Shown: positions 1-16,653 of the stretch, piece by piece
Position numbering within the stretch: position 1 is the stretch's first letter
How the letters are laid out: each line of letters starts with the position of its first letter
Program-made: the position numbers and the translations under genes
Virus record (IMG/VR): IMGVR_UViG_2869947659_000004
Strand: one strand, 5' to 3'
Length of the DNA stretch: 16,653 bases
From: a virus
Taxonomy: Duplodnaviria; Heunggongvirae; Uroviricota; Caudoviricetes
Notes under the pieces: generated by a model
What the model saw: the letters and a program-made list of their open reading frames with translations, nothing else
What the model was told of the DNA's origin: nothing
The model's database searches: none

Positions 1-888
1 ATGCCACTGCTGGATAAGCTGCGTAAGCTGTACGGGGTCGGACCGGTATGCAGTGAACTACATATTGCCCCGTCAACGTATTACCACTGTCAGCAACAGC
101 GACATCATCCTGATAAACGCAGTGCCCGTGCGCAGCGCGATGACTGGCTGAAGAAAGAGATACTGCGCGTATACGATGGGAATCATCAGGTATACGGTGT
201 GCGTAAAGTCTGGCGTCAGTTGTTACGGGAAGGTATCAGAGTGGCCAGATGCACTGTGGCACGTCTCATGGCGGTTATGGGACTTGCCGGCGTTCTCCGG
301 GGTAAAAAGGTCCGTACGACCATCAGCCGGAAAGCCGTTGCCGCAGGCGACCGCGTAAACCGTCAGTTCGTGGCAGAACGACCTGACCAGCTGTGGGTGG
401 CTGATTTTACTTACGTCAGCACATGGCAGGGCTTCGTCTATGTGGCGTTCATTATTGATGTGTTTGCCGGATACATCGTGGGGTGGAGGGTCTCATCGTC
501 CATGGAAACGACATTCGTGCTGGATGCTCTGGAGCAGGCGTTATGGGCCCGTCGACCGTCCGGCACGGTCCATCACAGTGATAAAGGTTCTCAGTATGTA
601 TCGCTGGCCTACACACAGCGGCTTAAGGAAGCCGGATTACTGGCATCAACAGGAAGTACAGGCGACTCGTATGACAACGCGATGGCGGAGAGCATCAATG
701 GTCTTTACAAAGCGGAGGTAATACACCGTAAGAGCTGGAAAAACCGTGCAGAAGTGGAACTGGCCACACTCACGTGGGTGGACTGGTATAATAATCGACG
801 ATTGCTGGAAAGGCTGGGCCACATCCCTCCGGCAGAAGCAGAAAAAGCTTATTATGCTTCCATCGGAAACGATGATCTGGCAGCCTGA
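1..888 (+). CDS. IS3-family transposase OrfB (integrase core, DDE)
   Basis: 295-aa ORF with the IS3-group OrfB signature (…HHSDKGSQY…, …YDNAMAES…); same protein as 6617..7507 (-). Confidence 0.9.
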   Translation: MPLLDKLRKLYGVGPVCSELHIAPSTYYHCQQQRHHPDKRSARAQRDDWLKKEILRVYDGNHQVYGVRKVWRQLLREGIRVARCTVARLMAVMGLAGVLRGKKVRTTISRKAVAAGDRVNRQFVAERPDQLWVADFTYVSTWQGFVYVAFIIDVFAGYIVGWRVSSSMETTFVLDALEQALWARRPSGTVHHSDKGSQYVSLAYTQRLKEAGLLASTGSTGDSYDNAMAESINGLYKAEVIHRKSWKNRAEVELATLTWVDWYNNRRLLERLGHIPPAEAEKAYYASIGNDDLAA

Positions 889-930
889 GTTCACAGATAA
901 AACACTCTCCAGGAAACTCGGGGCGGTTCA
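1..930 (+). mobile_element. IS3-family insertion sequence (IS629/IS1203-like), copy 1; left part lies outside the window
   Basis: orfB translation is identical to the orfB of the complete copy at 6575..7875. The right end ...CTCGGGGCGGTTCA at 930 matches the terminal repeat of copy 2, and flanking sequence diverges immediately after. Confidence 0.85.
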
Positions 931-1170
931 CCCTTCTCCGGTCACCTGTTCATCTTCCGTGGCCGACGGGGTGACATGATTAAAATCCTGTGGGCTGATG
1001 CTGATGGTCTGTGCCTGTTCACCAGACGCCTGGAGGAAGGCCAGTTTATCTGGCCTGCTGTGCGTGACGGCAAGGTATCCATTACCCGCTCGCAACTGGC
1101 AATGCTCCTCGATAAGCTGGACTGGCGTCAGCCAAAAACATCCCGCCTTAATGCACTGACAATGTTGTAA
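931..1170 (+). pseudogene. IS66-family TnpB, C-terminal fragment (5' part displaced by IS629)
   Basis: The frame reads …PFSGHLFIFRGRRGDMIKILWADADGLCLFTRRLEEGQFIWP… from the first base after the IS629 end; this matches the conserved TnpB C-terminus. Confidence 0.8.
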
Positions 1171-1200
1171 AAATGTCATGGCCGGATTATAAAAACGGCC

Positions 1201-2793
1201 ATGAATCAAAAATACCTCATTCGCATTGCAGAACTGGAATGCCAGCTCCGTCAGAAAGACCAGCAACTGAGTCTGGTTGAAGAGACGGAGGCCTTCCTGC
1301 GCTCTGCACTGGCCCGCGCCGAAGAAAAGATCGAAGAAGATGAACGGGAAATAGAACATCTGCGGGCTCAGATAGAAAAACTGCGCCGGATGCTGTTCGG
1401 TACCCGTTCTGAAAAACTGCGTCGTGAAGTTGAACAGGCTGAGGCCCTGCTGAAACAACGCGAACAGGACAGTGATCGTTACAGTGGGCGGGAAGACGAT
1501 CCGCAGGTTCCCCGCCAGTTGCGACAGTCTCGTCATCGTCGCCCGTTACCGGAGCATCTGCCCCGCGAAATAAATCGCCTGGAGCCAGAAGAAAGCTGTT
1601 GCCCGGAGTGTGGCGGTGAGCTGGATTATCTGGGGGAAGTCAGCGCAGAACAACTGGAACTGGTGAGCAGCGCTCTGAAAGTGCTCCGCACAGAACGGGT
1701 AAAAAAAGCCTGTACAAAATGTGACTGCATCGTTGAAGCACCGGCACTATCCCGTCCGATAGAGCGTGGTATCGCGGGCCCGGGGTTACTTGCCCGCGTG
1801 TTAACGGGAAAATACTGCGAACACCTGCCACTGTATCGTCAGAGTGAAATTTTTGCCCGTCAGGGTGTCGAACTGAGCCGTGCATTACTCTCCAACTGGG
1901 TTGACGCGTGCTGCCAGTTAATGACGCCGCTGAATGATGCTCTGTACCGTTATGTAATGAACAGCCGCAAAGTTCACACTGATGACACACCAGTAAAAGT
2001 GCTGGCACCGGGCAGGAAGAAGGCGAAAACAGGATATATCTGGACGTATGTCCGGGATGACAGGAATGCCGGTTCGCCAGAGCCTCCGACGGTCTGGTTC
2101 GCCTACTCACCGGACCATCAGGGTAAACATCCGGAGCAGCACCTTAGTCCCTTCCGGGGTATCCTGCAGGCAGATGCGTTTAATGGTTACGATCGGCTGT
2201 TCAGTGCCGAACGAGAAGGCGGCGCGTTGACGGAAGCAGGATGCTGGGCTCATGCGCGGCGCAAAGTCCACGATGTATATATCAGTACCAAAAGCGCGAC
2301 AGCGGAAGAAGCCCTGAAACTAATCGGTGAGCTGTACGCCATCGAGCACGAAATACGCGGGTTGCCGGTGTCTGAACGCCTGGCGGTCAGGCAAATGCAG
2401 AGTAAACCGCTACTGACTTCCCTGTATAAGCTGATGCAGGAGAAAGAACACACGTTATCGAAAAAATGCCGTCTGAGAGATGCGTTCCGGTATATCAGGA
2501 AGCACTGGGTTGCGTTGTGCAACTTCAGTGATGATGGTCTGGCTGAGGCGGATAATAATGCCGCGGAAAGAGCGCTTCGTGCAGTCTGTCTCGGAAAGAA
2601 AAACTTTATGTTCTTCGGCAGCGATCACGGTGGAGAGCGTGGTGCGCTACTGTACGGGCTGATCGGCACCTGCCGACTGAACGGTATCGATCCGGAAGCG
2701 TATCTGCGCTATATCCTGAGCGTACTGCCGGAATGGCCTTCCAACCGTGTTGACGAACTCCTGCCATGGAACGTAGCACTCACCAATAAATAA
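1201..2793 (+). CDS. IS66-family transposase TnpC
   Basis: 530-aa ORF with N-terminal coiled coil, CxxC…CxxC zinc-binding motif (CPECGGE…CTKCDC) and the IS66 transposase core; RBS-distance start after tnpB. Confidence 0.9.
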   Translation: MNQKYLIRIAELECQLRQKDQQLSLVEETEAFLRSALARAEEKIEEDEREIEHLRAQIEKLRRMLFGTRSEKLRREVEQAEALLKQREQDSDRYSGREDDPQVPRQLRQSRHRRPLPEHLPREINRLEPEESCCPECGGELDYLGEVSAEQLELVSSALKVLRTERVKKACTKCDCIVEAPALSRPIERGIAGPGLLARVLTGKYCEHLPLYRQSEIFARQGVELSRALLSNWVDACCQLMTPLNDALYRYVMNSRKVHTDDTPVKVLAPGRKKAKTGYIWTYVRDDRNAGSPEPPTVWFAYSPDHQGKHPEQHLSPFRGILQADAFNGYDRLFSAEREGGALTEAGCWAHARRKVHDVYISTKSATAEEALKLIGELYAIEHEIRGLPVSERLAVRQMQSKPLLTSLYKLMQEKEHTLSKKCRLRDAFRYIRKHWVALCNFSDDGLAEADNNAAERALRAVCLGKKNFMFFGSDHGGERGALLYGLIGTCRLNGIDPEAYLRYILSVLPEWPSNRVDELLPWNVALTNK

Positions 2794-2908
2794 GCGTCAA
2801 TACGGTGCTCCGTTGACGCTTACTATCGTATTGATTGATCTGCATCAAATTAACGTAAAAGCAACTTCAGATAATACAAATCAGCAACACTGAATATGGG
2901 GAAACATT

Positions 2909-3109
2909 ATGTCATCAAAGAACAGAACCCGCAGAACAACAACCCGCAACATCCGATTTCCAAACCAGATGATTGAACAAATTAACATCGCTCTTGATCT
3001 GAAAGGTTCAGGAAACTTTTCAGCGTGGGTTATTGAAGCCTGCAGGAGAAGGCTGGCAACAGATGCAACGCATCTGCGCCCGGCCAGCATGAAAAATAAC
3101 GAGAAATGA
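2909..3109 (+). CDS. ylcI: YlcI/YnfO-family (DUF3950) small prophage protein
   Basis: 66-aa ORF MSSKNRTRRTTTRNIRFPNQMIEQINIALDLKGSGNFSAWVIEACRRRL…, recalled as the DLP12 ylcI-type protein found near lysis/packaging genes of lambdoid prophages. Confidence 0.55.
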   Translation: MSSKNRTRRTTTRNIRFPNQMIEQINIALDLKGSGNFSAWVIEACRRRLATDATHLRPASMKNNEK

Positions 3110-3240
3110 ACGTTCGGTTACAGGAGCAGGTACCCACTGTCCTCCAACAATATTTCATCTTCATATCCGACGGAACAAGACTTACCCTGCCGGGATGTAC
3201 AGAATAACAACAGAGTGATAATTAATTTCTGATGAAATAA

Positions 3241-3573
3241 TCAGGGTGCAGAAGGACTAAAGATAAACGTTTTCTTCACGCCTTTACACGGCCTGTCCTT
3301 CTCAAATCGCCATTTTGCCATCGCCTTTACAACCTGCTCATCAAACAAATGGTGCGGCTCTGAACGGATAAACTCAATTCGGGTGACAGTACCATCAGCA
3401 CCAATATCAAACTTCACATCAACCCGTCCCTTTATATAATTTGCCGCTGCATAGGCCGGATATTGTGGTAATGCCTTAACCAACTGTCGGGGCATATCTG
3501 TTTTATGTTGCGTACAGCCCATAACCAGAGAAGACAACAAAATAATTAACGGAAGGTTTCTTTTCATTTTCAT
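3241..3573 (-). CDS. Lipoprotein consisting of a TonB C-terminal-like domain
   Basis: Signal peptide plus lipobox (…LLSSLVMGC, +2 Thr). The mature part, PQYPAYAAANYIKGRVDVKFDIGADGTVTRIEFIRSEPHHLFDEQVVKAMAKWRF, aligns residue-by-residue with the E. coli TonB C-terminus (PQYPARAQALRIEGQVKVKFDV…AMRRWRY). Start is uncertain: GTG 3582, ATG 3573 or ATG 3567. Confidence 0.7.
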   Translation of the reverse strand: MKMKRNLPLIILLSSLVMGCTQHKTDMPRQLVKALPQYPAYAAANYIKGRVDVKFDIGADGTVTRIEFIRSEPHHLFDEQVVKAMAKWRFEKDRPCKGVKKTFIFSPSAP

Positions 3574-3911
3574 TCCCGGCACAGATAAGAATAAGTCTTA
3601 TTCTAACAATGCCACCCTGTCGGTCATCAATCCTCTGCTTAATGGCAACGACAATTATCCGACTTAAATCACAAATCAGACACATGACATAACAGAGCTT
3701 GCGAGGTAACACATCGTCCGGTTTCTTCCACCATCGCACCGGACCAGCGACCATGAGGGGACAACGCCGCGCTCCGTTAACGCGGTAAACCCCGGTGTGT
3801 ATCGTTTTTGATTATCCCCGCACACTCGCGCAGAGGAGTCTCCCGGTCGGGCTGCGGTCTCTGTTAATGCGGGGATACGGCGACAATACCGCGCATGGTT
3901 AATAAGGTCGC

Positions 3912-4136
3912 TCAACACACTGGCTGTAATGCAGCGGATACCATGCGGCATTTAGCGGCATTAATCGTACACTCAACGGTTAGCTCTTCATTCGTGGCAT
4001 TCACCTGAAAGGTCCGGGAGTGTAATTGCGTACATTTACCACTGAACGAACCTTCAACAAGAACACGACCACGCTGCAAAATACGGAACGGAATTGTTCC
4101 CTGAAAAGGCTTTACGGTTACCAGTAATTTCTTCAT
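3912..4136 (-). CDS. Hypothetical 74-aa protein (5 Cys, no signal peptide)
   Basis: ATG is preceded by GGAG at RBS distance (CCGGAGAATGCATG), immediately downstream of the spanin genes on the same strand. No family recognised. Confidence 0.4.
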   Translation of the reverse strand: MKKLLVTVKPFQGTIPFRILQRGRVLVEGSFSGKCTQLHSRTFQVNATNEELTVECTINAAKCRMVSAALQPVC

Positions 4137-4159
4137 GCATTCTCCGGATAACAAAAATA

Positions 4160-4558
4160 CTAGTTAATACACTGAGTGCGGATATATTCCTGCGCCCCTT
4201 CCAGTTGCTTCTGCATTGTCATCAACCGCTCTCTGAGGGTGAAATAATCCCGTTCAGCGGTGTCTGCCAGTCGGGGGCCGGTTGCATTATCCATTCCGGA
4301 GGTGCCGGTGGCTTCACGCACGGTACCGGAGCAGGTGGCGTTGATCCGCAGGCGCTTACGACCAGCGGCAACATCACGCTGGCGCTGCTGCATGTCAGTA
4401 ATGGTTGCGTTTGCCAGCTCCAGCTCTCTGGCTTTTTTATCGCGCTGCGCTTTGTAGGTGATGGCGTTATCACGGTAATGGTCTGTTGCCAGCCACAGCG
4501 CACCACAGACCACCAGCAGAATAACGGTAAACGCGGAAAGCATTCGGTTTATGTTCAC
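4160..4558 (-). CDS. Rz: Spanin inner-membrane subunit Rz (i-spanin)
   Basis: …HYRDNAITYKAQRDK…PRLADTAERDYFTLRERL…MQKQLEG… matches lambda Rz. The track start at 4558 is GTG overlapping the upstream stop (GTGA); an ATG at 4543 is an alternative start. Confidence 0.85.
   Translation of the reverse strand: MNINRMLSAFTVILLVVCGALWLATDHYRDNAITYKAQRDKKARELELANATITDMQQRQRDVAAGRKRLRINATCSGTVREATGTSGMDNATGPRLADTAERDYFTLRERLMTMQKQLEGAQEYIRTQCIN
4222..4374 (-). CDS. Rz1: Spanin outer-membrane lipoprotein Rz1 (o-spanin), embedded in Rz in the +1 frame
   Basis: MLPLVVSACGSTPPAPVPCVKPPAPPEWIMQPAPDWQTPLNGIISPSESG: lipobox VSAC, proline-rich, near-identical C-terminus to lambda Rz1 (…WQTPLNGIISPSERG). Confidence 0.8.
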   Translation of the reverse strand: MLPLVVSACGSTPPAPVPCVKPPAPPEWIMQPAPDWQTPLNGIISPSESG

Positions 4559-4686
4559 CCCAGCAGCCCCGACGAAGACAACATCATCCAGGCCATGGAA
4601 AGAAAAAGAGCAACCAGCATTAGTGAAAATGAAATGCCGACAATTACACAGAGGCTCTTCGCCAGCGTTATGAGTTTGTCTGACAT
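4555..4686 (-). CDS. Hypothetical 43-aa single-pass membrane protein
   Basis: MSDKLITLAKSLCVIVGISFSLMLVALFLSMAWMMLSSSGLLG; strong SD (AAGGGAGGATTAAGCATG); its stop overlaps the Rz GTG start. Confidence 0.45.
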   Translation of the reverse strand: MSDKLITLAKSLCVIVGISFSLMLVALFLSMAWMMLSSSGLLG

Positions 4687-4700
4687 GCTTAATCCTCCCT

Positions 4701-4883
4701 TCACGATTTCAACGCAATGACCAGTTTTGCCAGCCCATACAGCATCGGGGACACAGCAACACCGACCGCCACCCACTTAATGGCAAAAGCCAGTGCTCTG
4801 CTGATGTCATCAGTTACAGGCGCTTTCAGTTCAAGGCCGTTTTTCATGGTCAACCTCAACAGAATTCGTTTATACTTCGCCAT
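4701..4883 (-). CDS. Hypothetical 60-aa protein with a C-terminal transmembrane segment
   Basis: MAKYKRILLRLTMKNGLELKAPVTDDISRALAFAIKWVAVGVAVSPMLYGLAKLVIALKS; SD AGGGAG 4 nt before the ATG (AAGGGAGAACATG); 14 nt upstream of the 43-aa ORF. Confidence 0.45.
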   Translation of the reverse strand: MAKYKRILLRLTMKNGLELKAPVTDDISRALAFAIKWVAVGVAVSPMLYGLAKLVIALKS

Positions 4884-4917
4884 GTTCTCCCTTGCCTTAC
4901 TCAAGGTCAGAAACACA

Positions 4918-4952
4918 AAACCCCGCTTGGTGCCAACAAACGGGGTTTTTAC
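4918..4952. terminator. Bidirectional rho-independent-type hairpin between the endolysin and the small ORF pair
   Basis: AAAACCCCG-n15-CGGGGTTTTT with T-rich runs on both strands. Confidence 0.5.
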
Positions 4953-5038
4953 TTTTATTCACTTACGTTTCGCCAGTTCGCAGGATTTCGTGTTATCCGT
5001 CCGCGTGCTCATGCCTTATTTTCAGCAAAATATTCTGC

Positions 5039-5572
5039 TTATCTGTCGATGTCCCAGCACGCCAGCGCACTTTCCTGGTCTCGCCGGGATACCTGACCGT
5101 AGCAATTATTTGAGCGGATACGGCAGTCTCTGCCACCGTCCTTAATCCACCAGCGAATCGCTTCGCATGCTCCCCTGCGGTCACCAGCATTAATCCGTCT
5201 GTAAAACGTCGACGGGAAACACTTACCGGGGCCAATGTTATAGGGACAAAATGACGCGATACCCGCTTTCTGGGGTTCGGTCAGCGGCACTTTAATATTG
5301 CGCTCCACCCATGCCAGCGCCTTATCACGCTCAATGGCGTTGACCTGGTCGCATTTTTCCTTCGACAACTTCATGCCCGGGACGACAGGTTTACTATCCA
5401 CCAGGATGGCACCGCGGCAGATGGTCCAGATACCCGCGCCATCACGGTATGCCGTGGTGTGGTTACCTTCCTTTTCATCCAGAAACTGGTCGAGGATTTC
5501 AGGCGCAGGCGCACCTGCGGCAATCAGCGCCAGAACGGCAGCCGACAGGCCGTATTTGATTTTGGTGTTCAT
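5039..5572 (-). CDS. R: SAR endolysin (phage lysozyme, GH24) with N-terminal signal-anchor-release domain
   Basis: 177 aa; the Ala/Gly-rich weakly hydrophobic N-terminus (GLSAAVLALIAAGAPAPE) is followed by a T4-lysozyme-type catalytic region (…EGNHTTAYRDGAGIWTICRG…). Recalled as near-identical to Qin RrrQ. Confidence 0.9.
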   Translation of the reverse strand: MNTKIKYGLSAAVLALIAAGAPAPEILDQFLDEKEGNHTTAYRDGAGIWTICRGAILVDSKPVVPGMKLSKEKCDQVNAIERDKALAWVERNIKVPLTEPQKAGIASFCPYNIGPGKCFPSTFYRRINAGDRRGACEAIRWWIKDGGRDCRIRSNNCYGQVSRRDQESALACWDIDR

Positions 5573-5622
5573 GGATATTTATCAGGGTTTATCGATTTCA
5601 AATCCCTGGATATGTTAAGTCT

Positions 5623-5967
5623 TCAGGCCAGCGGTGGAGTCTTCAGAGAACCAGTAATTATTCCCGGTAGTTTTCCTCTGTAGGTTATCAACACATCCTG
5701 CGCCTCTAAAATTACGGGGCGCTTTTCCGGCAACGGACCATCCCCTTCACATAACCCGGCAGCAACATCCATGAAAAACTGCTTCGCCTGCTTTTTCGCC
5801 TCAGCTTCGTAAAACTCCAGCGTGGCATCTTCAGTACGGTCAAGACTAATCGCCACATCTGGCAACAACAGTGACGGATACCCACCAATTTCCAGTGCCA
5901 CAGTAACAGTAATCTTATTCGGGTAATTATTTATCCCTTTAACAACCAGTTCGTATTTTTTCTTCAT
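5623..5967 (-). CDS. DUF1327 (YdfR-like) prophage protein between holin and endolysin
   Basis: 114-aa soluble protein in the position occupied by ydfR between essQ and rrrQ in the Qin prophage; assignment is from recall. Confidence 0.6.
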   Translation of the reverse strand: MKKKYELVVKGINNYPNKITVTVALEIGGYPSLLLPDVAISLDRTEDATLEFYEAEAKKQAKQFFMDVAAGLCEGDGPLPEKRPVILEAQDVLITYRGKLPGIITGSLKTPPLA

Positions 5968-5971
5968 CGCT

Positions 5972-6187
5972 TTACTCTCCCCGCGCCGCCTTACGACGGT
6001 CCTCTCTGATTTTGAAATACAGGTTAGTCAGATATGTCAGCAGCCCAAACAACAGACTCCCCAGCACGCCTATTGCCGCCCACTGAGACGGGGAAACCCT
6101 GTCCAGCAACTGCAGGAACCAGTAGCCCGTTCCCACCGCTGACGTGGTGTATGACACACCTGTTGTGATTTTTTCCATCTGGTACAT
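5972..6187 (-). CDS. S: Class II holin, phage-21 S-like pinholin with dual start (71/68 aa)
   Basis: [71 protein letters not shown]: two TMDs, S21-like C-terminus, Met1/Met4 dual-start motif, SD GGGAG upstream. Confidence 0.9.
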
Positions 6188-6263
6188 ACCCCGTCTCCCG
6201 CAATCCGGAAGCTCACAACAATATAAAGACCACCGGCACACACCGATGGTCCCTTGCGCATGC

Positions 6264-6509
6264 TTACATCATCATGTCGCTGTCAGGTGTAGGTTCACCG
6301 CCATCTGAAGCACTCCCGTCACCCGCGATACCTTCCGGCTCAGGAACCGCTGCTACGCCCAGCAGCTCATCCAGAATGGCATCCACTTCTGCATCAAGAC
6401 GCGACTCAAGATTCTGGCGAAGTTTCTGTTTCAGTGCGCTCCGGACTTCTTCAGAGCGCAGGACTTCCTTCACTGCCTCTGCAGTGACCAGGGATGTGAT
6501 TTCTGACAT
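6264..6509 (-). CDS. Hypothetical 81-aa acidic protein upstream of the holin
   Basis: Long ORF in the late-operon orientation with a helical N-terminus and a very acidic tail (…[18 protein letters not shown]). Weak RBS; no family recognised. Confidence 0.4.
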
Positions 6510-6616
6510 GGGATTTTCTCGCTGAAAGGGGTTGTTAAGGAGTAACGGGTTCTTCGGGTTTGCTTCCGGCTGACTGAACCGCCCCGAGTTTCCTGGAGAG
6601 TGTTTTATCTGTGAAC

Positions 6617-7507
6617 TCAGGCTGCCAGATCATCGTTTCCGATGGAAGCATAATAAGCTTTTTCTGCTTCTGCCGGAGGGATGTGGCCCAGCCTTTCCAG
6701 CAATCGTCGATTATTATACCAGTCCACCCACGTGAGTGTGGCCAGTTCCACTTCTGCACGGTTTTTCCAGCTCTTACGGTGTATTACCTCCGCTTTGTAA
6801 AGACCATTGATGCTCTCCGCCATCGCGTTGTCATACGAGTCGCCTGTACTTCCTGTTGATGCCAGTAATCCGGCTTCCTTAAGCCGCTGTGTGTAGGCCA
6901 GCGATACATACTGAGAACCTTTATCACTGTGATGGACCGTGCCGGACGGTCGACGGGCCCATAACGCCTGCTCCAGAGCATCCAGCACGAATGTCGTTTC
7001 CATGGACGATGAGACCCTCCACCCCACGATGTATCCGGCAAACACATCAATAATGAACGCCACATAGACGAAGCCCTGCCATGTGCTGACGTAAGTAAAA
7101 TCAGCCACCCACAGCTGGTCAGGTCGTTCTGCCACGAACTGACGGTTTACGCGGTCGCCTGCGGCAACGGCTTTCCGGCTGATGGTCGTACGGACCTTTT
7201 TACCCCGGAGAACGCCGGCAAGTCCCATAACCGCCATGAGACGTGCCACAGTGCATCTGGCCACTCTGATACCTTCCCGTAACAACTGACGCCAGACTTT
7301 ACGCACACCGTATACCTGATGATTCCCATCGTATACGCGCAGTATCTCTTTCTTCAGCCAGTCATCGCGCTGCGCACGGGCACTGCGTTTATCAGGATGA
7401 TGTCGCTGTTGCTGACAGTGGTAATACGTTGACGGGGCAATATGTAGTTCACTGCATACCGGTCCGACCCCGTACAGCTTACGCAGCTTATCCAGCAGTG
7501 GCATCAC
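6617..7507 (-). CDS. IS3-family transposase OrfB (DDE integrase core)
   Basis: Same translation as 1..888 (+); overlaps orfA by 4 nt, consistent with an OrfAB frameshift fusion. Confidence 0.9.
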
Positions 7508-7821
7508 TGGCGGTCGAACTCCGCCTTCGCAAAATAAGCGGAAGCCTGGCGAAGGATATCGTTACTGCGGCGCAGTTCACGATTTTCACGTTCCAGCTCT
7601 TTCAGACGCTGACGTTCAGCGGTGGTGAGCCCGCCATCACCGCCTCCGGTATCCCGCTCATGCTGGCGTACCCAGACACGCAGAGTCTCCGGTGTACAGC
7701 CAATCTTTGGGGCAATGGAACAAATTGCCGCCCACTGTGAGTCATATTCGCCCTGACTTTCCAGAACCATACGAATCGCCCTCTGACGGACTTCGGGGGA
7801 AAAACGAGTATTTTTAGTCAT
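7504..7821 (-). CDS. IS3-family transposase OrfA (HTH)
   Basis: [57 protein letters not shown]…; 54-nt leader after the left terminal repeat. Confidence 0.9.
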
Positions 7822-7875
7822 CCTGTTTACCTCTTTCTCAGGGAGTTTAGTCTCCAGGATTCCCGGGGCGGTTCA

Positions 7876-8021
7876 GACTGACTGGCGCTGATTTTCTCAG
7901 CGGCCCTTTTATCAATCTGCCTGCACCAGAAATCGCGCACAGCCCTGTACCCACCCGAAAGAAGATACAGCACACAGACCGCCGTACAGAAGTACAGCAT
8001 CACCTGATGAATAAATGTCAT
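7876..8021 (-). pseudogene. Small membrane-protein ORF (about 60 codons before insertion) split by IS629 copy 2
   Basis: MTFIHQVMLYFCTAVCVLYLLSGGYRAVRDFWCRQIDKRAAEKISASQ| continues in frame across the removed IS (one GAC copy) as SAGSKPEEPVTP* at 6535..6571. Confidence 0.35.
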
Positions 8022-8160
8022 AATTTCTTACCGTTATGGTTGAAAATGAGAATTGTTTTCATTTAAAAAACCAATGTACGAAAGCATCTTTTCTTTACAT
8101 TCTCCATTGGGATTACCTCCGCCAGCTTCCATTCCTGCCGCTGGCGGCTTTTTTTAGCAA

Positions 8161-8659
8161 TTATGCGGCTGCTCCAGCTTTGTTTGCTTTAACTTCCACC
8201 GTATCAATAAGTACAGGGTAGGTTTCTGCACTACCTGTAATATCCGTAATGACAAACCTGTTGAGTCCATTAGCAGTATTGGCCCATTTCACCAGGTCAA
8301 ACGCCTGTCCATCCACACCATCAAGCACCGGAGTAACATTAATGCTGTTACTGCCCTTAAATTTAAATGCAAGCGTATGCCAGTCATGGTCGAATGCGCC
8401 AAACGTGCCAAGTTCTTTTTGTTGATTAACTGTATGATGGTATGCAACATTAATACTGGCTTTATCTGTCTGGACAAAGAAAGAACTCAGATGGCCTTCA
8501 CCACCCTCACCCGGCCATTCCGCTATTCGCCAGTACAAACCAAAGGCATACTTGTTTCTGGTTGTCTCAAGATTGACGTTTTCGGGGATTTTAAACCGGA
8601 CAGCAATTTCCCCGCCTTTTTCCAGTAAAAGTTTTGCCTTGTCTGCAGCAATATCACAG
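8161..8659 (-). pseudogene. nanS-p-like sialate O-acetylesterase, C-terminal segment (split by IS600)
   Basis: Frame continues exactly from 9924..11293 once IS600 and one copy of its target-site duplication are removed; the 174-aa track ORF starts inside IS600. Confidence 0.75.
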
Positions 8660-8723
8660 TGAGGTAGCCTGAGTTTAACGGACACTCCTTCCTGAAATAG
8701 AATGGCATCAGAAGGAGCTAATA

Positions 8724-9026
8724 ATGAGCAGAAAAAACCAACGTTACTCTAAAGAGTTCAAAGCCGAAGCTGTCAGAACGGTTCTTGAAAATCAACTTTC
8801 GATCAGTGAAGGCGCTTCCCGATTATCCCTTCCTGAAGGCACTTTAGGACAATGGGTTACCGCCGCCAGAAAAGGGCTCGGTACTCCTGGTTCCCGCACG
8901 GTGGCTGAACTGGAATCTGAAATTCTGCAACTGCGTAAGGCGTTAAATGAAGCTCGCCTTGAGCGAGATATATTAAAAAAAGCAACAGCGTATTTTGCAC
9001 AGGAGTCGCTGAAAAATACGCGTTAA
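8724..9026 (+). CDS. IS600 transposase OrfA
   Basis: MSRKNQRYSKEFKAEAVRTVLENQLSISEGASRLSL…; HTH plus leucine zipper typical of IS3-family OrfA. Confidence 0.9.
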   Translation: MSRKNQRYSKEFKAEAVRTVLENQLSISEGASRLSLPEGTLGQWVTAARKGLGTPGSRTVAELESEILQLRKALNEARLERDILKKATAYFAQESLKNTR

Positions 9027-9061
9027 TCGAACAATGGCGACAACAATTTCCCATTGAAGCG

Positions 9062-9880
9062 ATGTGTCAGGTATTTGGTGTATCCAGGAGCGGTTATTAC
9101 AACTGGGTACAGCATGAACCCTCAGACAGAAAACAAAGTGATGAGCGGCTAAAACTGGAGATTAAGGTGGCACATATCCGCACTCGCGAAACATATGGAA
9201 CCCGGCGGCTCCAGACGGAGCTGGCAGAGAATGGCATCATCGTTGGTCGTGACCGACTGGCACGTCTTCGTAAGGAGCTAAGGCTACGCTGTAAGCAGAA
9301 ACGTAAGTTCAGAGCGACTACGAACCCGAACCACAATCTGCCAGTTGCGCCAAATCTGCTGAACCAGACGTTCGCTCCTACAGCACCAAATCAGGTCTGG
9401 GTGGCGGACCTGACGTATGTTGCCACACAGGAGGGATGGTTGTACCTCGCTGGCATCAAAGATGTTTATACGTGCGAAATTGTCGGCTACGCCATGGGAG
9501 AGCGCATGACAAAAGAGCTGACAGGTAAAGCCCTGTTTATGGCGCTCAGGAGCCAGCGCCCACCTGCCGGGCTAATCCACCACTCTGATCGAGGTTCACA
9601 GTACTGCGCATACGATTACCGGGTCATACAGGAGCAGTCTGGTCTGAAAACATCAATGTCGCGTAAAGGTCACTGTTACGACAACGCTCCGATGGAAAGC
9701 TTCTGGGGAACGCTGAAAAATGAGAGCCTGAGCCACTATCGTTTTAATAACCGGGATGAAGCCATCTCAGTAATACGGGAATACATTGAGATTTTCTACA
9801 ATCGTCAGCGTCGTCACTCTCGTCTGGGGAATATCTCCCCGGCAGCCTTCAGGGAAAAATATCATCAGATGGCTGCTTAA
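9062..9880 (+). CDS. IS600 transposase OrfB (DDE)
   Basis: 272 aa with the IS3-family integrase core (…IHHSDRGSQY…, …CYDNAPMESFWG…). Confidence 0.9.
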   Translation: MCQVFGVSRSGYYNWVQHEPSDRKQSDERLKLEIKVAHIRTRETYGTRRLQTELAENGIIVGRDRLARLRKELRLRCKQKRKFRATTNPNHNLPVAPNLLNQTFAPTAPNQVWVADLTYVATQEGWLYLAGIKDVYTCEIVGYAMGERMTKELTGKALFMALRSQRPPAGLIHHSDRGSQYCAYDYRVIQEQSGLKTSMSRKGHCYDNAPMESFWGTLKNESLSHYRFNNRDEAISVIREYIEIFYNRQRRHSRLGNISPAAFREKYHQMAA

Positions 9881-9923
9881 AAAAAGAACAAATGGTAGTG
9901 TCCGCTATTGCCAGTACACCTCA

Positions 9924-11293
9924 CAGTACATTGACCAGGATTTCGCGCTGTTATTTTTCTCAATTCGCAGAGCTTTATTGCCGCTGTCATCAACCAGTGT
10001 GCGTCTGCCATACATACCGTCCCAGCCATAAGGTTTCAGCTGATTGTCTGTAGCTTTTTTGGCATCGTAAAAAATTACAGACTCTGAGGTGGTAACCGGC
10101 CTGTCTGGAACAACCACCCCGGCAGTACCATTAACAAACGCAGAAGACTTACCCGCGCAGCTCAGAATCGCCGTTGCCAGACGGTCGGAAATAATCCCAC
10201 GGCGAGCCCATGAACTGAAATGGCTCGCCCTGTCCTGTGACGTCCAGGTGGCTGAGCTGTCACGCCATTTCGAACCGTAATAACCGATACCCGGAATGTC
10301 CGGGTCTTCTTCCGGTTTGTTCGTCGGCACATTCACCCCGTTCTCATCGGTCATGAACGGTACGAAATGGATATTCTTTTCCGTTTTATTTTTATAGCTG
10401 CCGTACACCGTCTGGTACGTGGATTCGTTCTTCTGCTTCCAGAAATACGTCGTGTCCCCGCATATCCAGGGAACACCGCCAGCAGAGCCACCGACGCACT
10501 GGCCTGCCATATCCGCCAGGTCTGCACGGAATTTATCAACCAGCGCACCAAACTGTGCGGCATGATTTGCCGGCGTACCGCCAAAATCAAATTCCCCCTG
10601 CATCCACACCACGGCAAACAGCACATTTTTCGGGTTCTTCTCCAGTGCCGCTTTTGTTCGACCGATAAGGTCCTTATACAGCGGCTTGTCCACACCCCAG
10701 CGGGTTGAATTCTCCGAGGCACCACTCGCGTCACTGTATGTGCCATCAGCTCCGGTGGTGAACGCTGAACCACCACGACAGCACGGAACCAGCAGAATGC
10801 CCGCATTCGCCGGTATAAACGGCAGCAGTTTTTTGGCGATATGCAGCCCCTGCCCCACGGTTCCGTACTGCCCCTTTGACAGGTCCGCTTTCGGATGGTT
10901 AAGACGGCTCATGTCCTGCACATCATGCAGACAATGGTCCGCCGGAATGATGTCGTTATATTTGCATGCTGCACCGCCCGGTGTCACCGTACTGCGACGC
11001 GCCAGTTGCTTAATACGCGGGTCCGGACGGTCATATGTCCCCGGCAGCGGAAGGCCTTCACCATACGACATGCCGTTTGACTGCCCTGCCAGAACCACAA
11101 CAAAGTAATACTCCGGGTCGCTGGTGGCGCTGATTACTGCACCTTCTGCTGCAATCGCCTGCATCAGAGTATAAGGGGTTATGGCCACCGGACTACCAAA
11201 CGGCTGCCAGCCCTCTTTCAGTTTATGTGTCAGCTTTTCCGCAAGATCTGACGGCGACGCCGCCCTGACAACATCATAGTGTTTAAAAGCCAT
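9924..11293 (-). pseudogene. nanS-p-like sialate O-acetylesterase (prophage NanS-p / SASA-SGNH hydrolase), N-terminal 456 codons
   Basis: N-terminal prophage-type domain followed by the SGNH/SASA motif VVVLAGQSNGMSYGEG. Located between the tRNA cluster and the lysis cassette, as nanS-p is in Stx-type prophages. Interrupted by IS600 after codon 456. Confidence 0.75.
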
Positions 11294-11476
11294 GAATCCT
11301 CCCGGCCGGGATAATATTGTGAGTAAAATGAGGAGCGGGCTGAAGTCCGGAAGTTACAGGACAATGGCAGAAGAGAGACGACAGCCCGCAATTCGAAAAA
11401 GACCGCGCAGTTGCGCAGAGTGATTACTATGGGGTATTATTCGCCAGCTGAAATATTACTTCACGTTTTATTGTTT

Positions 11477-11512
11477 ATTCCTTGCCGCCCGCGTCTCCCA
11501 GCGCGGGCTTTT
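11477..11512 (+). terminator. Hairpin followed by a T7 run in the tRNA-to-nanS-p spacer
   Basis: GCCCGCG-TCTCCCA-GCGCGGGC followed by TTTTTTT on the plus strand; a second GC hairpin follows at about 11519..11545. Confidence 0.4.
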
Positions 11513-11737
11513 TTTGCCCACAAGAAAGCCCCTCCGGAGAGGGGCTGGAGAGTGGCGCTATGTGCCATTGCATGGTGCCGGGTGCCTCCCGGTGAATTCA
11601 GTACCAGCACCTGAATCCGCGATTATCCCATATACCTACTCGCTGATTGCCCCTCCGCACAGGGGGATTCACCATGCCAGTTTCTTTTAACAAACTCCCC
11701 GCAAACCAGACAACAGTCAACCGTCTGAATTGTGAGA

Positions 11738-11766
11738 CATTTAAAAAAAAAGCCCGCAAAAGCGAG
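11738..11766 (-). terminator. Rho-independent terminator downstream of the tRNA cluster
   Basis: On the minus strand: GCTCGC-TTTT-GCGGGC followed by T9. Confidence 0.55.
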
Positions 11767-11782
11767 CCAGGGAAAATAAGTG

Positions 11783-11859
11783 TGGCGCGTTGTACTGGAT
11801 TCGAACCAGTGACCGATTGCTTAGAAGGCAATTGCTCTGTCCGGCTGAGCTAACAACGC
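11783..11859 (-). tRNA. tRNA-Arg (anticodon UCU)
   Basis: Cloverleaf read by hand: acceptor GCGTTGT/ACAACGC, anticodon loop CTTCTAA, T-arm ACTGG-TTCGAAT-CCAGT, encoded CCA. Confidence 0.85.
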
Positions 11860-11872
11860 ATGATGCAGATAA

Positions 11873-11949
11873 TGGACCGCCATCGGGGACTTGAACCCCG
11901 CGCAGCCAGCTTCGAAGGCTGGCGCTCTTTCCTGATGAGCTAATGGCGG
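11873..11949 (-). tRNA. tRNA-Arg (anticodon UCG)
   Basis: Acceptor CCGCCAT/ATGGCGG, anticodon loop CTTCGAA, T-arm CGGGG-TTCAAGT-CCCCG, encoded CCA. Confidence 0.8.
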
Positions 11950-11956
11950 TATGTGA

Positions 11957-12032
11957 TGGTGGCCCTTGCTGGATTTGCACCAGCGACCTGGCGATTATGA
12001 GTCGCTCGCTCTCACCACTGAGCTAAAGGGCC
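11957..12032 (-). tRNA. tRNA with CAU anticodon (Ile2/Met type, ileZ-like)
   Basis: Acceptor GGCCCTT/AAGGGCC, anticodon loop CTCATAA, T-arm GCTGG-TGCAAAT-CCAGC, encoded CCA. First of three in the order CAU / Arg / Arg, as in the ileZ-argN-argO cluster of Stx-type phages. Confidence 0.8.
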
Positions 12033-12072
12033 GGGAGCCGCATAATAACGACGCGTAATTAATTCTTCAATA

Positions 12073-13104
12073 TCATCCGTTCTGGCTGACTAAATCCTGT
12101 ACTTCCCGAACCGTCTGCTCAAAACGTTCAGTCTCCAGCTCAACGCCAATTGCACGACGCCCGAGCGCCAGTGCCGCTTTCACTGTCGAACCCGACCCCA
12201 TGAAAAAATCTGCAATCAGGTCACCCGGACGACTGCTAGCGCTGATTATCTGCTGCAGCATTTCTGCCGGTTTTTCGCACGGATGTTTCCCGGGATAGAA
12301 CTGCACCGGTTTATGCGTCCACACATCGGTATACGGCACCTGCACCGTCACGCCAAAATACCGCCGCAGATGTTTATATTCACTCAGCAGCTCCGCATAC
12401 TGCCGGTTCAGTGAGGTATACGTATCCACCAGCTGGTGGTGGAGCTTTTCCAGTTCACCACGCCGATGCTTCTCTTCTGCCACCCGGGCAAACAGCGCCT
12501 GTAATTTCAGATAATCGCTTTCATTCGGCAACTGCCACTGACTGGCACTGAACCAGTGCGACACCATGTTTTTCTTTCCTGTGGCATCTGCAATCTGTTT
12601 TGCCGTTATCCCCAGGGCAGCTCGCGCATCACGAAAGTAAGAAATCAGCGGGGCCATCACATGCTGTTTCAGTGCACTGCCCTTCACCGCATACCCGGCA
12701 TCTTTCGGACGATACGGCCCCTGATAATGTTCCGCGAACAGAATGCGCTCTGTGGCGGGGAAATACGCCCGCAGGCTTTCCTTGTTGCATCCGTTCCAGC
12801 GTCCGGACGGCTTCGCCCAGATAATATGGTTCAGCACACTGAAGCGTTCACGCATCATGATTTCGATATCAGATGCCAGGCGATGACCACAGAACAGGTA
12901 AAGACTTCCGGCAGGTTTCAGCACCCGCCAGAACTGCGCCAGACACTGGTCCAGCCACTTCAGGTAATCATCGTCGCCCTTCCACTGGTTATCCCAGCCC
13001 TCAGGCTTCACTTTAAAGTACGGCGGGTCCGTGACTATCAGGTCAACAGAATTTTCGGGTAACGACCAGATAAATTCCAGGCAGTCGGCGGGTAATGACT
13101 CCAA
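12073..13104 (-). CDS. DNA methyltransferase, beta-class (N6-adenine or N4-cytosine; motif IV DPPY before motif I FxGSGST); 5' end abuts IS1
   Basis: …SVDLIVTDPPYF… near the N-terminus and …DFFMGSGSTV… near the C-terminus. The first 4 to 5 codons (MESLP) lie inside the IS1 terminal repeat, so the native start was probably lost. Confidence 0.85.
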   Translation of the reverse strand: MESLPADCLEFIWSLPENSVDLIVTDPPYFKVKPEGWDNQWKGDDDYLKWLDQCLAQFWRVLKPAGSLYLFCGHRLASDIEIMMRERFSVLNHIIWAKPSGRWNGCNKESLRAYFPATERILFAEHYQGPYRPKDAGYAVKGSALKQHVMAPLISYFRDARAALGITAKQIADATGKKNMVSHWFSASQWQLPNESDYLKLQALFARVAEEKHRRGELEKLHHQLVDTYTSLNRQYAELLSEYKHLRRYFGVTVQVPYTDVWTHKPVQFYPGKHPCEKPAEMLQQIISASSRPGDLIADFFMGSGSTVKAALALGRRAIGVELETERFEQTVREVQDLVSQNG

Positions 13105-13105
13105 C

Positions 13106-13501
13106 TTACTGATAGTGTTTTATGTTCAGATAATACCCGATGACCTTGTCATGCAGCTCCACCGATTTTGAGAACGACAGTGACTTCCGTCCCAGCCTTG
13201 CCAGATGTTGTCTCAGATTCAGATTATGTCGCTCAATGCGCTGAGTGTAACGCTTGCTGATAACGTGCAGCTTTCCCTTCAGGCGTGATTCATACAGCGG
13301 CCAGCCATCCGTCATCCATACCACGACCTCAAAGGCCGACAGCAGGCTCAGAAGACGCTCCAGTGTGGCCAGAGTGCGTTCACCGAAGACGTGCGCCACA
13401 ACCGTCCTCCGTATCCTGTCATACGCGTAAAACAGCCAGCGCTGACGTGATTTAGCACCGACGTAGCCCCACTGTTCGTCCATTTCAGCGCAGACAATCA
13501 C
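13106..13501 (-). CDS. insB: IS1 InsB
   Basis: [28 protein letters not shown]… is the characteristic InsB sequence. Confidence 0.95.
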
Positions 13502-13527
13502 ATCACTGCCCGGTTATATGCGCGAGG

Positions 13528-13803
13528 TTACCGACTGCGGCCTGAGTTTTTTAAGTGACGTAAAACCGTGTTGAGGCCAACGCCCATAATGCGTGCACTG
13601 GCGCGACATCCGACGCCATTCATGGCCATATCAATGATTTTCTGGTGCGTACCGGGCTGAGAGGCGGTGTAAGTGAACTGTAGTTGCCATGTTTTACGGC
13701 AATGAGAGCAGAGATAGCGCTGATGTCCGGCAGTGCTTTTGCCGTTACGCACCACGCCTTCAGTAGCGGAGCAGGAAGGACATCTGATGGAAATGGAAGC
13801 CAC
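13528..13803 (-). CDS. insA: IS1 InsA
   Basis: [43 protein letters not shown]… is the characteristic InsA sequence. Confidence 0.95.
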
Positions 13804-13858
13804 GCAAGCACCTTAAAATCACCATCATACACTAAATCAGTAAGTTGGCAGCATTACC

Positions 13859-14106
13859 CGCTCGACGAGTGGAAACCAAAACGGTTCAGTCTCCCAATAA
13901 CAAACACTACCCTGGTGAAATACGGAAAACTAGGATACATCGTTCCAAGACCACAAAAAATTCGTGGGCGTTGGCTGATAGATCGCCGAGCAGTATTTGT
14001 TGGGCCTGGTGAAACGGGAATTGCGCCGGAAATTCATACTGGCGATGATGATGCACTGAAGGAGATTTTAACTCATGTCACCGAGGCCACGAAAAAACAG
14101 CACTGA
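13859..14106 (+). pseudogene. xis: Excisionase (lambda Xis-like), start codon removed by IS1
   Basis: …PLDEWKPKRFSLPITNTTLVKYGKLGYIVPRPQKIRGRWLIDRRAV… resembles lambda Xis (…LTLQEW…VRRWVRECRIFPPPVKDGREYLF…). No start codon exists after the IS1 end, and the 3' end overlaps int as in lambda. Confidence 0.6.
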
Positions 14107-14899
14107 CGTAGCCGGTCTTTACGAAAAGTTTGATCGCAGAACTGGCAGAGTTTACTACCAGTATAAAAATCCTGTGACTGGAAAATTTCACGGACTCGGA
14201 ACAGACAAAGGTAAGGCAGAAAAAATCGCTTCCACAGCCAATCAGCGAATAGCTGCAGCAGAAGCTGAATATTTCATGCGCAAAATTGATGAAAGTCCGT
14301 CAGCAACAAAACGTCGGGGTATCAGATTAAAGGCATGGGTTGATCGATATCTGAAAATACAGGACACGCGACTGAAAAATGGAGATATTGCAGCTACAAC
14401 TCACAAAGAAAAAACTCGAATGGCTGCATACCTGGTTTCCCGTCTGGGAAACCACCCATTGAAAGAACTGGAAGTAAGAGACTTTGCATTAATACTGGAT
14501 GAGTGGCTGGATAAAGACATGGTCAGCACAGCGAGAGTAAATCGTGGATTATGGGTTGATATTTATAAAGAAGCACAGCATGCAGGGGAAGTTCCTCCTG
14601 GATGGAATCCTCCGGAGGCTACCCGTAAACCGATCCCTAAAGTAACCAGAGCCAGGCTCACCATGGAAGACTGGCAAAAAATTTACAATGCAACGCCTGA
14701 AAAACACTTTATCCGTAACGCAATGCTTCTTGCGATTGTTACTGGTCAGCGCCGTGATGACATTTGCCACATGCGTTTTTCAGATGTGTGGAACGAACAC
14801 TTGCATATCACCCAGGGAAAAACCGGAATGCGTCTGGCGTTACCGCTTACACTACGCTGTGATGCCATTGGGATAACGTTAAAAGAAGTTATTGATGGG
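14075..14899 (+). pseudogene. int: Phage integrase (tyrosine recombinase, lambda Int family), 3'-truncated by IS600
   Basis: N-terminal arm-binding and core-binding regions are present, but the ORF runs straight into the IS600 left end at 14900, so the C-terminal catalytic region including the Tyr is missing from this window. Confidence 0.85.
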
Positions 14900-15413
14900 T
14901 GAGGTAGCCTGAGTTTAACGGACACTCCTTCCTGAAATAGAATGGCATCAGAAGGAGCTAATAATGAGCAGAAAAAACCAACGTTACTCTAAAGAGTTCA
15001 AAGCCGAAGCTGTCAGAACGGTTCTTGAAAATCAACTTTCGATCAGTGAAGGCGCTTCCCGATTATCCCTTCCTGAAGGCACTTTAGGACAATGGGTTAC
15101 CGCCGCCAGAAAAGGGCTCGGTACTCCTGGTTCCCGCACGGTGGCTGAACTGGAATCTGAAATTCTGCAACTGCGTAAGGCGTTAAATGAAGCTCGCCTT
15201 GAGCGAGATATATTAAAAAAAGCAACAGCGTATTTTGCACAGGAGTCGCTGAAAAATACGCGTTAATCGAACAATGGCGACAACAATTTCCCATTGAAGC
15301 GATGTGTCAGGTATTTGGTGTATCCAGGAGCGGTTATTACAACTGGGTACAGCATGAACCCTCAGACAGAAAACAAAGTGATGAGCGGCTAAAACTGGAG
15401 ATTAAGGTGGCAC
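14900..15413 (+). mobile_element. IS600, second copy, left 514 bp only; interrupted by IS2
   Basis: Identical to 8660..9173 of the complete copy; identity stops at 15413 where the IS2 terminal repeat begins. Confidence 0.9.
14964..15266 (+). CDS. IS600 transposase OrfA (copy 2)
   Basis: Identical 100-aa translation to 8724..9026. Confidence 0.9.
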   Translation: MSRKNQRYSKEFKAEAVRTVLENQLSISEGASRLSLPEGTLGQWVTAARKGLGTPGSRTVAELESEILQLRKALNEARLERDILKKATAYFAQESLKNTR

Positions 15414-15424
15414 TGGATTTGCCC

Positions 15425-16330
15425 CTATATTTCCAGACATCTGTTATCACTTAACCCATTACAAGCCCGCTGCCGCAGATATTCCCGTGGCGAGCGATAA
15501 CCCAGCGCACTATGCGGATGCCATTCGTTATAATGTTCGAACGCCTCTGCAAGGTTCTTTGCTGCCGTTAACCCGTCTGGTTTGGGCATGATACTGATGT
15601 AGTCACGCTTTATCGTTTTCACGAAGCTCTCTGCTATTCCGTTACTCTCCGGACTCCGCACCGCCGTGTTCTTCGGTTCAAGTCCCAACATCCGGGCGAA
15701 CTGGCGTGTTTCATTAGCCCGGTAGCATGAACCATTATCCGTCAGCCACTCCACTGGAGACGACGGAAGATCGTTGCCGAAGCGGCGTTCCACCGCTCCC
15801 AGCATGACGTCCTGTACTGTTTCACTGTTGAAGCCGCCGGTAGTCACCGCCCAGTGCAGTGCCTCACGATCACAGCAGTCCAGCGCGAACGTGACACGCA
15901 GTCTCTCTCCGTTATCACAGCAGAACTCGAACCCGTCAGAGCACCATCGCTGATTGCTTTCTTTCACGGCCACTCTGCCTGTATGTGCCCGTTTCGATGG
16001 CGGTACAGCAGGTTTTCGCTCAAGCAACAGCGCATTCTGGCGCATGATCCGGTAAACACGTTTGGCATTGATCGCAGGCATACCATCAAGTTCTGCCTGT
16101 CTGCGAAGCAGCGCCCATACCCGACGATAACCATACGTGGGCAGCTCTCCGATAACATGGTGTATACGGAGAAGCACATCCGTATCATCAGTGTGACGAC
16201 TGCGGCGGCCATCCATCCAGTCATCGGTTCGTCTGAGAATGACGTGCAACTGCGCACGCGACACCCGGAGACAACGGCTGACTAAGCTTACTCCCCATCC
16301 CCGGGCAATAAGGGCGCGTGCGCTATCCAC
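15425..16330 (-). CDS. insD: IS2 transposase InsD (OrfB)
   Basis: [43 protein letters not shown]…, 301 aa. Confidence 0.95.
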
Positions 16331-16653
16331 TTTTTTGCCCGTCCATATTCAACGGCTTCTTTGAGGAGTTCATTTTCCATCGTTTTCTTGCCGAGCAGGC
16401 GCTGGAGTTCTTTAATCTGCTTCATGGCGGCAGCAAGTTCAGAGGCAGGAACAACCTGTTCTCCGGCGGCCACAGCAGTAAGACTTCCTTCCTGGTATTG
16501 CTTACGCCAGAGAAATAACTGGCTGGCTGCTACACCATGTTGCCGGGCAACGAGGGAGACCGTCATCCCCGGTTCAAAGCTCTGCTGAACAATTGCGATC
16601 TTTTCCTGTGTGGTACGCCGTCTGCGTTTCTCCGGCCCTAAGACATCAATCAT
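16288..16653 (-). CDS. insC: IS2 InsC (OrfA)
   Basis: [56 protein letters not shown]…; the start codon is at the last three bases of the window. Confidence 0.95.

Follow-up and report, generated by a model that had tools for sequence, protein, structure and literature searches.

Genes and boundaries at the IS1 junction

The stretch analyzed here (the window) is the complete 16,653-nucleotide (nt) sequence of IMG/VR record IMGVR_UViG_2869947659_000004, assigned to the Caudoviricetes, and our subject is a copy of the insertion sequence (IS) IS1 that lies in a lambdoid prophage between a phage DNA methyltransferase (methylase) gene and the excisionase gene xis, both of which lack their 5' ends. 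The features that meet at this junction are the following.

12073..13090, minus strand: phage N6/N4 DNA methyltransferase gene, 5'-truncated, first 41 nt (13 codons plus 2 nt) gone; Pfam N6_N4_Mtase, E = 2.5e-43
13082..13090, no strand: left 9-bp flank of IS1, CAGTCGGCG, without a duplicate on the right side
13091..13858, minus strand: IS1, complete, 768 bp, with insA and insB' on the minus strand; Pfam DDE_Tnp_IS1 in the source gene table
13514..13516, minus strand: TAA stop in the insB' frame (CAA in other copies), 11 codons past the frameshift site
13859..13867, no strand: right 9-bp flank of IS1, CGCTCGACG, equal to xis nt 23-31
13859..14106, plus strand: xis (excisionase), 5'-truncated, nt 1-22 gone, including the ATG and the first seven codons

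A first-pass annotation of the window had placed IS1 at 13082-13870; an IS1 is present there, but the element itself spans 13091 to 13858. It has both the length of about 768 bp and the imperfect inverted repeats of about 23 bp expected of IS1, with 20 of the 23 terminal nt complementary and ends that read GGTAATGACTCC... and GGTAATGCTGCC.... The insA-proximal end adjoins xis, and the opposite end adjoins the methylase gene. Compared with an annotated IS1 of Escherichia coli EC2, which has an intact programmed-frameshift transposase, the element is 99.6% identical (3 mismatches), and IS1 of the same type occurs in 5,121 of the 5,426 complete E. coli genomes. The window copy retains insA (91 amino acids [aa]) and the frameshift region, while the InsAB' frame is interrupted by the TAA codon. 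This CAA-to-TAA change is missing from the EC2 element and from the corresponding IS1 of a second assembly, contig L017 (AMGB01000032.1), which has an intact 167-aa insB and matches Pfam Zn_ribbon_InsA, HTH_Tnp_IS1, and DDE_Tnp_IS1. The window copy thus cannot make the InsAB' transposase, its transposase gene being now a pseudogene, and the nonsense change is recent because the same IS1 is intact in L017.

The truncation point of the methylase gene was set against phage ASU11 and E. coli FDAARGOS_1059, and that of xis, where homology starts at nt 23, against phage vB_EcoS-813R8 and E. coli ATCC 25922. The surviving part of xis has an exact (100%) match in many E. coli prophages located at potC. 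That IS1 adjoins the 5' part of the methylase gene on one side and an xis without a start codon on the other, as first annotated, is borne out by the 41 and 22 nt that are missing.

Absence of a target-site duplication

A simple IS1 insertion gives a direct target duplication of 9 bp, sometimes 8 bp. No such duplication flanks the window IS1: none of 8 to 9 bp appeared after the boundaries had been corrected, and none was found when they were shifted by up to 3 bp on either side. The two flanks had been described as unrelated. The lack of a duplication stands, but the left 9-mer had been read one base off and is corrected here to CAGTCGGCG, which matches CGCTCGACG at 6 of 9 positions, a level of agreement that random 9-mers of the window reach with a probability of about 0.011. 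This partial match is what favors a simple insertion whose 9-bp duplication decayed by mutation or was missed through misplaced boundaries. The flanks belong to different genes, however (methylase codon 14 and xis codon 8), which lie 12 to 15 kb apart in every intact relative. Both 9-mers are also identical to the uninterrupted methylase and xis sequences, so neither is a decayed duplication, and no shift of the boundaries makes them match. The gene context refutes a decayed duplication, to which we assign a practically negligible probability.

The other IS elements of the locus served as internal controls.

6575..7875, minus strand: IS629 #2, simple insertion, duplication GAC/GAC; missing from L017
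8660..9923, plus strand: IS600 #1, 1264 bp, simple insertion, duplication CAG/CAG
14900..15413, plus strand: IS600 #2, 5' part, simple insertion in the integrase gene int, duplication GGG/GGG; the remainder lies beyond the window
15414..16653, minus strand: IS2 within IS600 #2, duplication GGCAC/GGCAC; full length 1331 bp, with a projected end at 16744

All four carry canonical duplications. Perfect 9-bp duplications likewise flank all four IS1 insertions that we used as external controls, which lie in the exo, xis, or int regions of E. coli lambdoid prophages (L028 at 4303-5070, from E. coli TW10598, and L027, L029, and L030). The TW10598 element is a simple insertion that follows nt 175 of the same xis, in a prophage that has kept its early region. 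Since every control insertion is duplicated, the window IS1 is exceptional and its missing duplication, already reported in the first-pass annotation, is meaningful. We therefore read the window IS1 as a rearrangement junction and not as a simple insertion. An IS1-associated deletion would be expected to leave just this state, and the missing duplication is no argument against the element being IS1.

Integration locus and intact relatives

The window sequence recurs without a difference in CP026766.1, a 4.68-Mb chromosome, of which about 34 kb was read by an outward walk with locus-specific open reading frames (ORFs). Leftward of the window the order is ycfD (roxA), pepT, potA, potB, and a fragment of a tail-fiber-assembly gene (tfa'), followed by the IS66-family element with which the window opens; on the other side, IS2 and IS600 are completed, and the 3' end of int, potC, and potD follow. 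With potB on one side and potC on the other, both flanks of IS1 belong to one integration locus. The signature of a potB-potC lambdoid prophage is present, with a tyrosine integrase carrying an arm-binding domain and xis next to potC and the opposite end next to potB. In the source chromosome potB and potC lie 19.3 kb apart, versus 49.5 kb in E. coli ATCC 25922, which has an intact prophage at this site.

In a BLAST map against ATCC 25922, the source locus is collinear from the potB side through the lysis cassette and DUF826, DUF1378, DUF6645, and nanS, in order, to window position 11747; on the right, xis-int matches at 100% and is followed by potC and potD. Positions 39033-54184 of ATCC 25922 (15.2 kb) have no counterpart at the source locus. 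This segment holds a Q-like gene, rusA, replication genes, cro/cI-like regulators, dicB, exo, and the 5' end of xis, and in its place the source has a tRNA-methylase module followed by IS1, the module being a mosaic alternative that is not in ATCC 25922. In two other relatives, about 12 kb separates the start of xis from the Q/methylase/tRNA position. Comparison with intact relatives, proposed earlier as the way to map the deleted segment, thus gives 15.2 kb on ATCC 25922 and about 12 kb in the other two.

Early-region genes had been described as absent from the window; none was called there, whereas 12 to 15 kb of them occupy this position in intact relatives. Nor were any early (immunity, replication, and antitermination) or morphogenesis genes called between potB and potC of the source. 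Together these absences indicate that the potB-potC element is a remnant and not a functional prophage, as judged from its gene content. The late genes run leftward and xis-int runs rightward, as in every relative. A single inversion would join the 3' part of the methylase gene to the 5' part of xis, which is not seen, and the topology is that of a deletion. On the ATCC 25922 map, parts that are not adjacent in the intact prophage have kept their relative order and orientation while the 15.2 kb between them is gone, and the gap falls at IS1. The earlier preference for a deletion over an inversion agrees with this order and polarity and with the single potB-potC locus.

Origin of the junction

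IS1-promoted adjacent deletions and deletions between direct IS1 repeats are known from classical E. coli genetics, for example, in the gal region. The junction described here resembles them in having a single intact IS1 at a novel joint, no 9-bp duplication, one side lost, and the orientation of the flanks kept; it differs in that the event is read from an old, fixed scar and was not observed. We consider it very probable that an internal deletion of 12 to 15 kb removed the early region of one resident prophage at IS1. A single IS1-associated deletion would have taken the whole early region from a lambdoid prophage of about 45 to 50 kb between potB and potC, extending from xis nt 22 to methylase nt 41 and including exo, dicB, the genes for immunity and replication, and a Q-type antiterminator. 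An IS1 resident at one breakpoint may have attacked the other by intramolecular transposition (the classical adjacent deletion), or homologous recombination may have taken place between two IS1 copies that sat at the two breakpoints as direct repeats. The outcome of either route would be, as observed, a single IS1 between unrelated 9-bp flanks, with the neighboring genes ordered and oriented as before, and the two routes cannot be told apart. The first-pass annotation had offered these same two routes in place of a simple insertion and had left the choice between them as we do.

E. coli prophages repeatedly carry IS1 insertions in their xis/int regions, and none was found at the methylase 5' end in a search that was biased by query construction. 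On this basis we lean slightly toward xis as the putative ancestral IS1 site. One hit (H1), with an apparent 30-bp extension into the methylase flank, was rejected as an unrelated IS1 in a yqiJ-type context.

Several points weigh against a single deletion in one resident prophage. Neither a precursor, that is, IS1 with a 9-bp duplication at either breakpoint, nor the reciprocal junction was found in the 5,426 complete E. coli genomes, the GTDB species representatives, or the JGI metagenomes; the last two were covered by pattern scans and are a weak negative, as the source strain is not expected in either. The reciprocal junctions would read ...GAGCGAACAGTACCTGATAA|IS1 (xis 5' end) or IS1|TTGATTAACTCACAACTGG (methylase 5' end). 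Because no precursor or reciprocal product was recovered, the causal role of IS1 and the route are read from the scar. No intact relative was found that has both the present int-xis and the methylase-tRNA module, and the best match of the methylase gene (96.7%) is in a yccA prophage with a different integrase. Because no single intact relative matches, the content of the lost segment is pieced together from mosaic relatives. The source-genome evidence on whether the early region was relocated covers the approximately 34 kb of CP026766.1 that was walked.

A different history would make the prophage a hybrid. The late segment (2824-13090) would then derive from a second lambdoid prophage of this genome, brought in by two inversions or recombinations, one after the other, between IS copies at scattered sites, and the original early region would persist elsewhere in the chromosome. 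The late segment is bounded on each side by an IS junction that has no duplication, and an IS66::IS629 composite like that at its left end is found at several loci in related genomes. The late segment has at most 96.7% identity to E. coli genomes, whereas xis-int is 100% identical to many, and inversion rates in Shigella genomes are high (PMC8072062). Uneven identity between modules is, however, normal in mosaic lambdoid phages. Such a swap would also need at least two precisely placed rearrangements versus one deletion per junction, and yet the order and polarity of the segments are those expected of a resident prophage and are collinear with the potB-potC prophage of ATCC 25922. We regard a segment swap as distinctly unlikely and retain an internal deletion at IS1 as the best account of the junction.

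Age and distribution of the junction

The contig L017 (46.6 kb, from another assembly) matches window positions 2819-14901 at 99.7 to 99.9%. Both of its IS1 junctions are the same base for base as those of the window, with 21 differing positions over 7 kb. L017 has an intact 368-aa int, lacks IS629 #2, and carries an IS1 with intact insA and insB. It follows that the IS1 junction is older than the insertion of IS600 in int, of IS2 in that IS600, and of IS629 #2, and older than the CAA-to-TAA change in the window IS1. The junction is old and shared by a clade. Short-read contigs run from xis nt 23 into IS1 in many samples, and one such contig is found in at least 20 samples. A search for draft contigs with the left junction, made through the truncated methylase ORF, returned only the finished genome.

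This distribution also bears on whether the junction could be an assembly artifact, with two IS1 copies collapsed into one and the intervening DNA left out. Genomes of this kind carry IS1 in many copies, and repeats provoke misassembly. Two independent assemblies of diverged strains, a finished chromosome and the 46.6-kb draft contig, nevertheless span IS1 with identical junctions, many short-read contigs pass from xis nt 23 directly into IS1, and a 768-bp repeat is short relative to long reads. An artifact is therefore very improbable.

Of the 21 positions at which the window and L017 differ, 7 are packed into 27 nt of the methylase gene (window 12686-12712), a cluster that looks like a short gene-conversion patch from the methylase copy of another prophage. 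In L017 the methylase gene is broken into ORFs of 95 and 194 aa.

Decay of the prophage and comparison with known systems

The deletion at IS1 is not the only IS-bounded loss at this locus. The left end of the window is occupied by another element.

1..2823, plus strand: IS66-family element with a tnpB 3' fragment (976-1170), tnpC (1201-2793), and its right end at 2823; it carries IS629 #1 (window 1-930)

Its left end lies about 986 bp before the start of the window (L023 8039). This element has no 8-bp duplication (flanks GAACAACA and TATCGTAT). Where it stands, the intact relative ATCC 25922 has about 25.6 kb of genes for the tail, head, and terminase, and we interpret its junction as a second IS-bounded deletion in the same prophage. 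A 58-bp fragment to its left is presumably the left end of IS911. An IS66::IS629 composite with an identical 64-aa TnpB fragment is found at several unrelated chromosomal loci in other assemblies (L020-L025), among them a site beside the aerobactin genes and one within a penicillin-amidase gene, indicating that the composite moves or is copied as a unit.

The prophage retains the lysis cassette, three tRNA genes, a truncated nanS-p-like gene, a split int, and methylase and xis genes without their 5' ends; IS DNA makes up about 9.8 kb, or about half, of the 19.3-kb potB-potC locus. Because it is without immunity, replication, antitermination, and morphogenesis genes and without a usable xis or int, the remnant is predicted to be incapable of being induced, excised, or packaged. 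This supports the first-pass view of a fixed, non-inducible remnant and extends it, as the head and tail genes are also gone at the IS66-family junction. The 19.3-kb potB-potC prophage can be annotated as such a remnant.

Rac, Qin, and DLP12 of E. coli K-12 are cryptic lambdoid prophages. Like the present element, they are partial prophages without induction modules that are stably inherited; unlike it, they occupy other integration sites, and the present remnant has a much higher IS load and IS-marked deletion endpoints. The source strain is probably a Shigella, judging from its IS content and its accession series.

In Shigella, IS-associated deletions and rearrangements are a major route of genome decay, and expansion of IS1, IS2, and IS600 has been reported (Hawkey et al. 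2020, PMC7373316; Seferbekova et al. 2021, PMC8072062). The locus resembles decaying Shigella and enteroinvasive E. coli genomes in its partly matching IS set (IS1, IS2, and IS600, plus an apparent IS911 fragment), to which it adds IS629 and the IS66-family element, and in combining simple insertions with IS-bounded deletions. It differs in scale, since those studies are genome-wide with a focus on metabolic genes, and the present prophage junction is not described in the available parts of PMC7373316 or PMC8072062. Another analog, and a well-described one, is the defective, IS-ridden Shiga toxin (Stx) prophage of Shigella dysenteriae type 1, located near sapC and ycjW (PMC7819885; McDonough and Butterton 1999, cited there). 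It too is a lambdoid remnant that is fixed in the chromosome and conserved between strains, whereas the present remnant is without stx and lies at a different locus, potB-potC.

The case is one of ordinary IS-driven prophage decay in an IS-rich, Shigella-like genome, a phenomenon that is already known. Being old and shared by a clade, the IS1 junction could serve as a lineage marker in typing, and, as the case illustrates, a deletion junction is reliably flagged by an IS that has no target-site duplication. Its import past annotation is small, and it neither opens nor tests an unresolved biological question.

Surviving genes and minor observations

The remaining features of the remnant are the following.

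2824..6574, minus strand: surviving late and lysis genes, namely, DUF3950, a TonB-like gene, Rz, endolysin, DUF1327, holin, and DUF826
9905..11293, minus strand: nanS-p-like esterase gene, 3' end truncated by IS600 #1
11783..12032, minus strand: phage tRNA block, called by ARAGORN as tRNA-Met(CAT), tRNA-Arg(TCG), and tRNA-Arg(TCT)
14075..14899, plus strand: int, first 275 codons; Pfam Arm-DNA-bind_1 and Phage_integrase

The integrase gene is broken after codon 275 by IS600, which is in turn split by IS2, and the first 3 nt of IS600 provide its stop codon (14900-14902). The 3' end of int survives just past the window, so int was interrupted and not truncated by the deletion; the earlier description of int as truncated was right that the gene is broken, but the cause is the IS600::IS2 interruption. 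In SRR1984045, an unrelated sample with an intact xis, int was hit at the same nucleotide (window 14897-14902) by IS629 (L007 1140-1171). IS600 and IS629 both start with TGA, and the same 275-aa truncated Int results from either. The position may be an insertion hotspot for the IS3 family. The contigs L006 and L007 were examined as a possible predeletion state (a fusion of int to IS600 together with an intact xis) and rejected, as L006 ends where intact and interrupted int diverge and L007 has IS629, not IS600.

The tRNA called tRNA-Met(CAT) by ARAGORN is annotated as tRNA-Ile in the RefSeq records of relatives, and the phage tRNAs Ile2/Arg/Arg decode the rare codons AUA, AGA/AGG, and CGA. The layout of the late region, with a methylase gene, three tRNAs, nanS-p, and lysis genes, is like that of Stx phages, yet no stx was found between the tRNA block and the truncated nanS-p gene (window 11294-11782). 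The tRNA block and the lysis cassette, which lie between the two IS-bounded deletions, are conserved across diverged strains. The remnant may be more than random debris, with the tRNAs perhaps kept by selection because they aid the translation of AT-rich virulence genes with rare codons, and the two hits at one nucleotide of int, each leaving the 275-residue arm-binding fragment, might reflect a strong insertion hotspot or selection for the truncated product; we regard this as improbable.

An apparent internal repeat with a 244-bp offset near 3831-4620 was an artifact of BLAST against a multilocus file, and Tandem Repeats Finder reported nothing there. Outside the prophage, ymfA and ycfZ (about 1.3 kb in ATCC 25922) are gone between potD and cobB of the source, at a point equivalent to window 19881-19915 (L004 approximately 15807-15841) where there is no IS.

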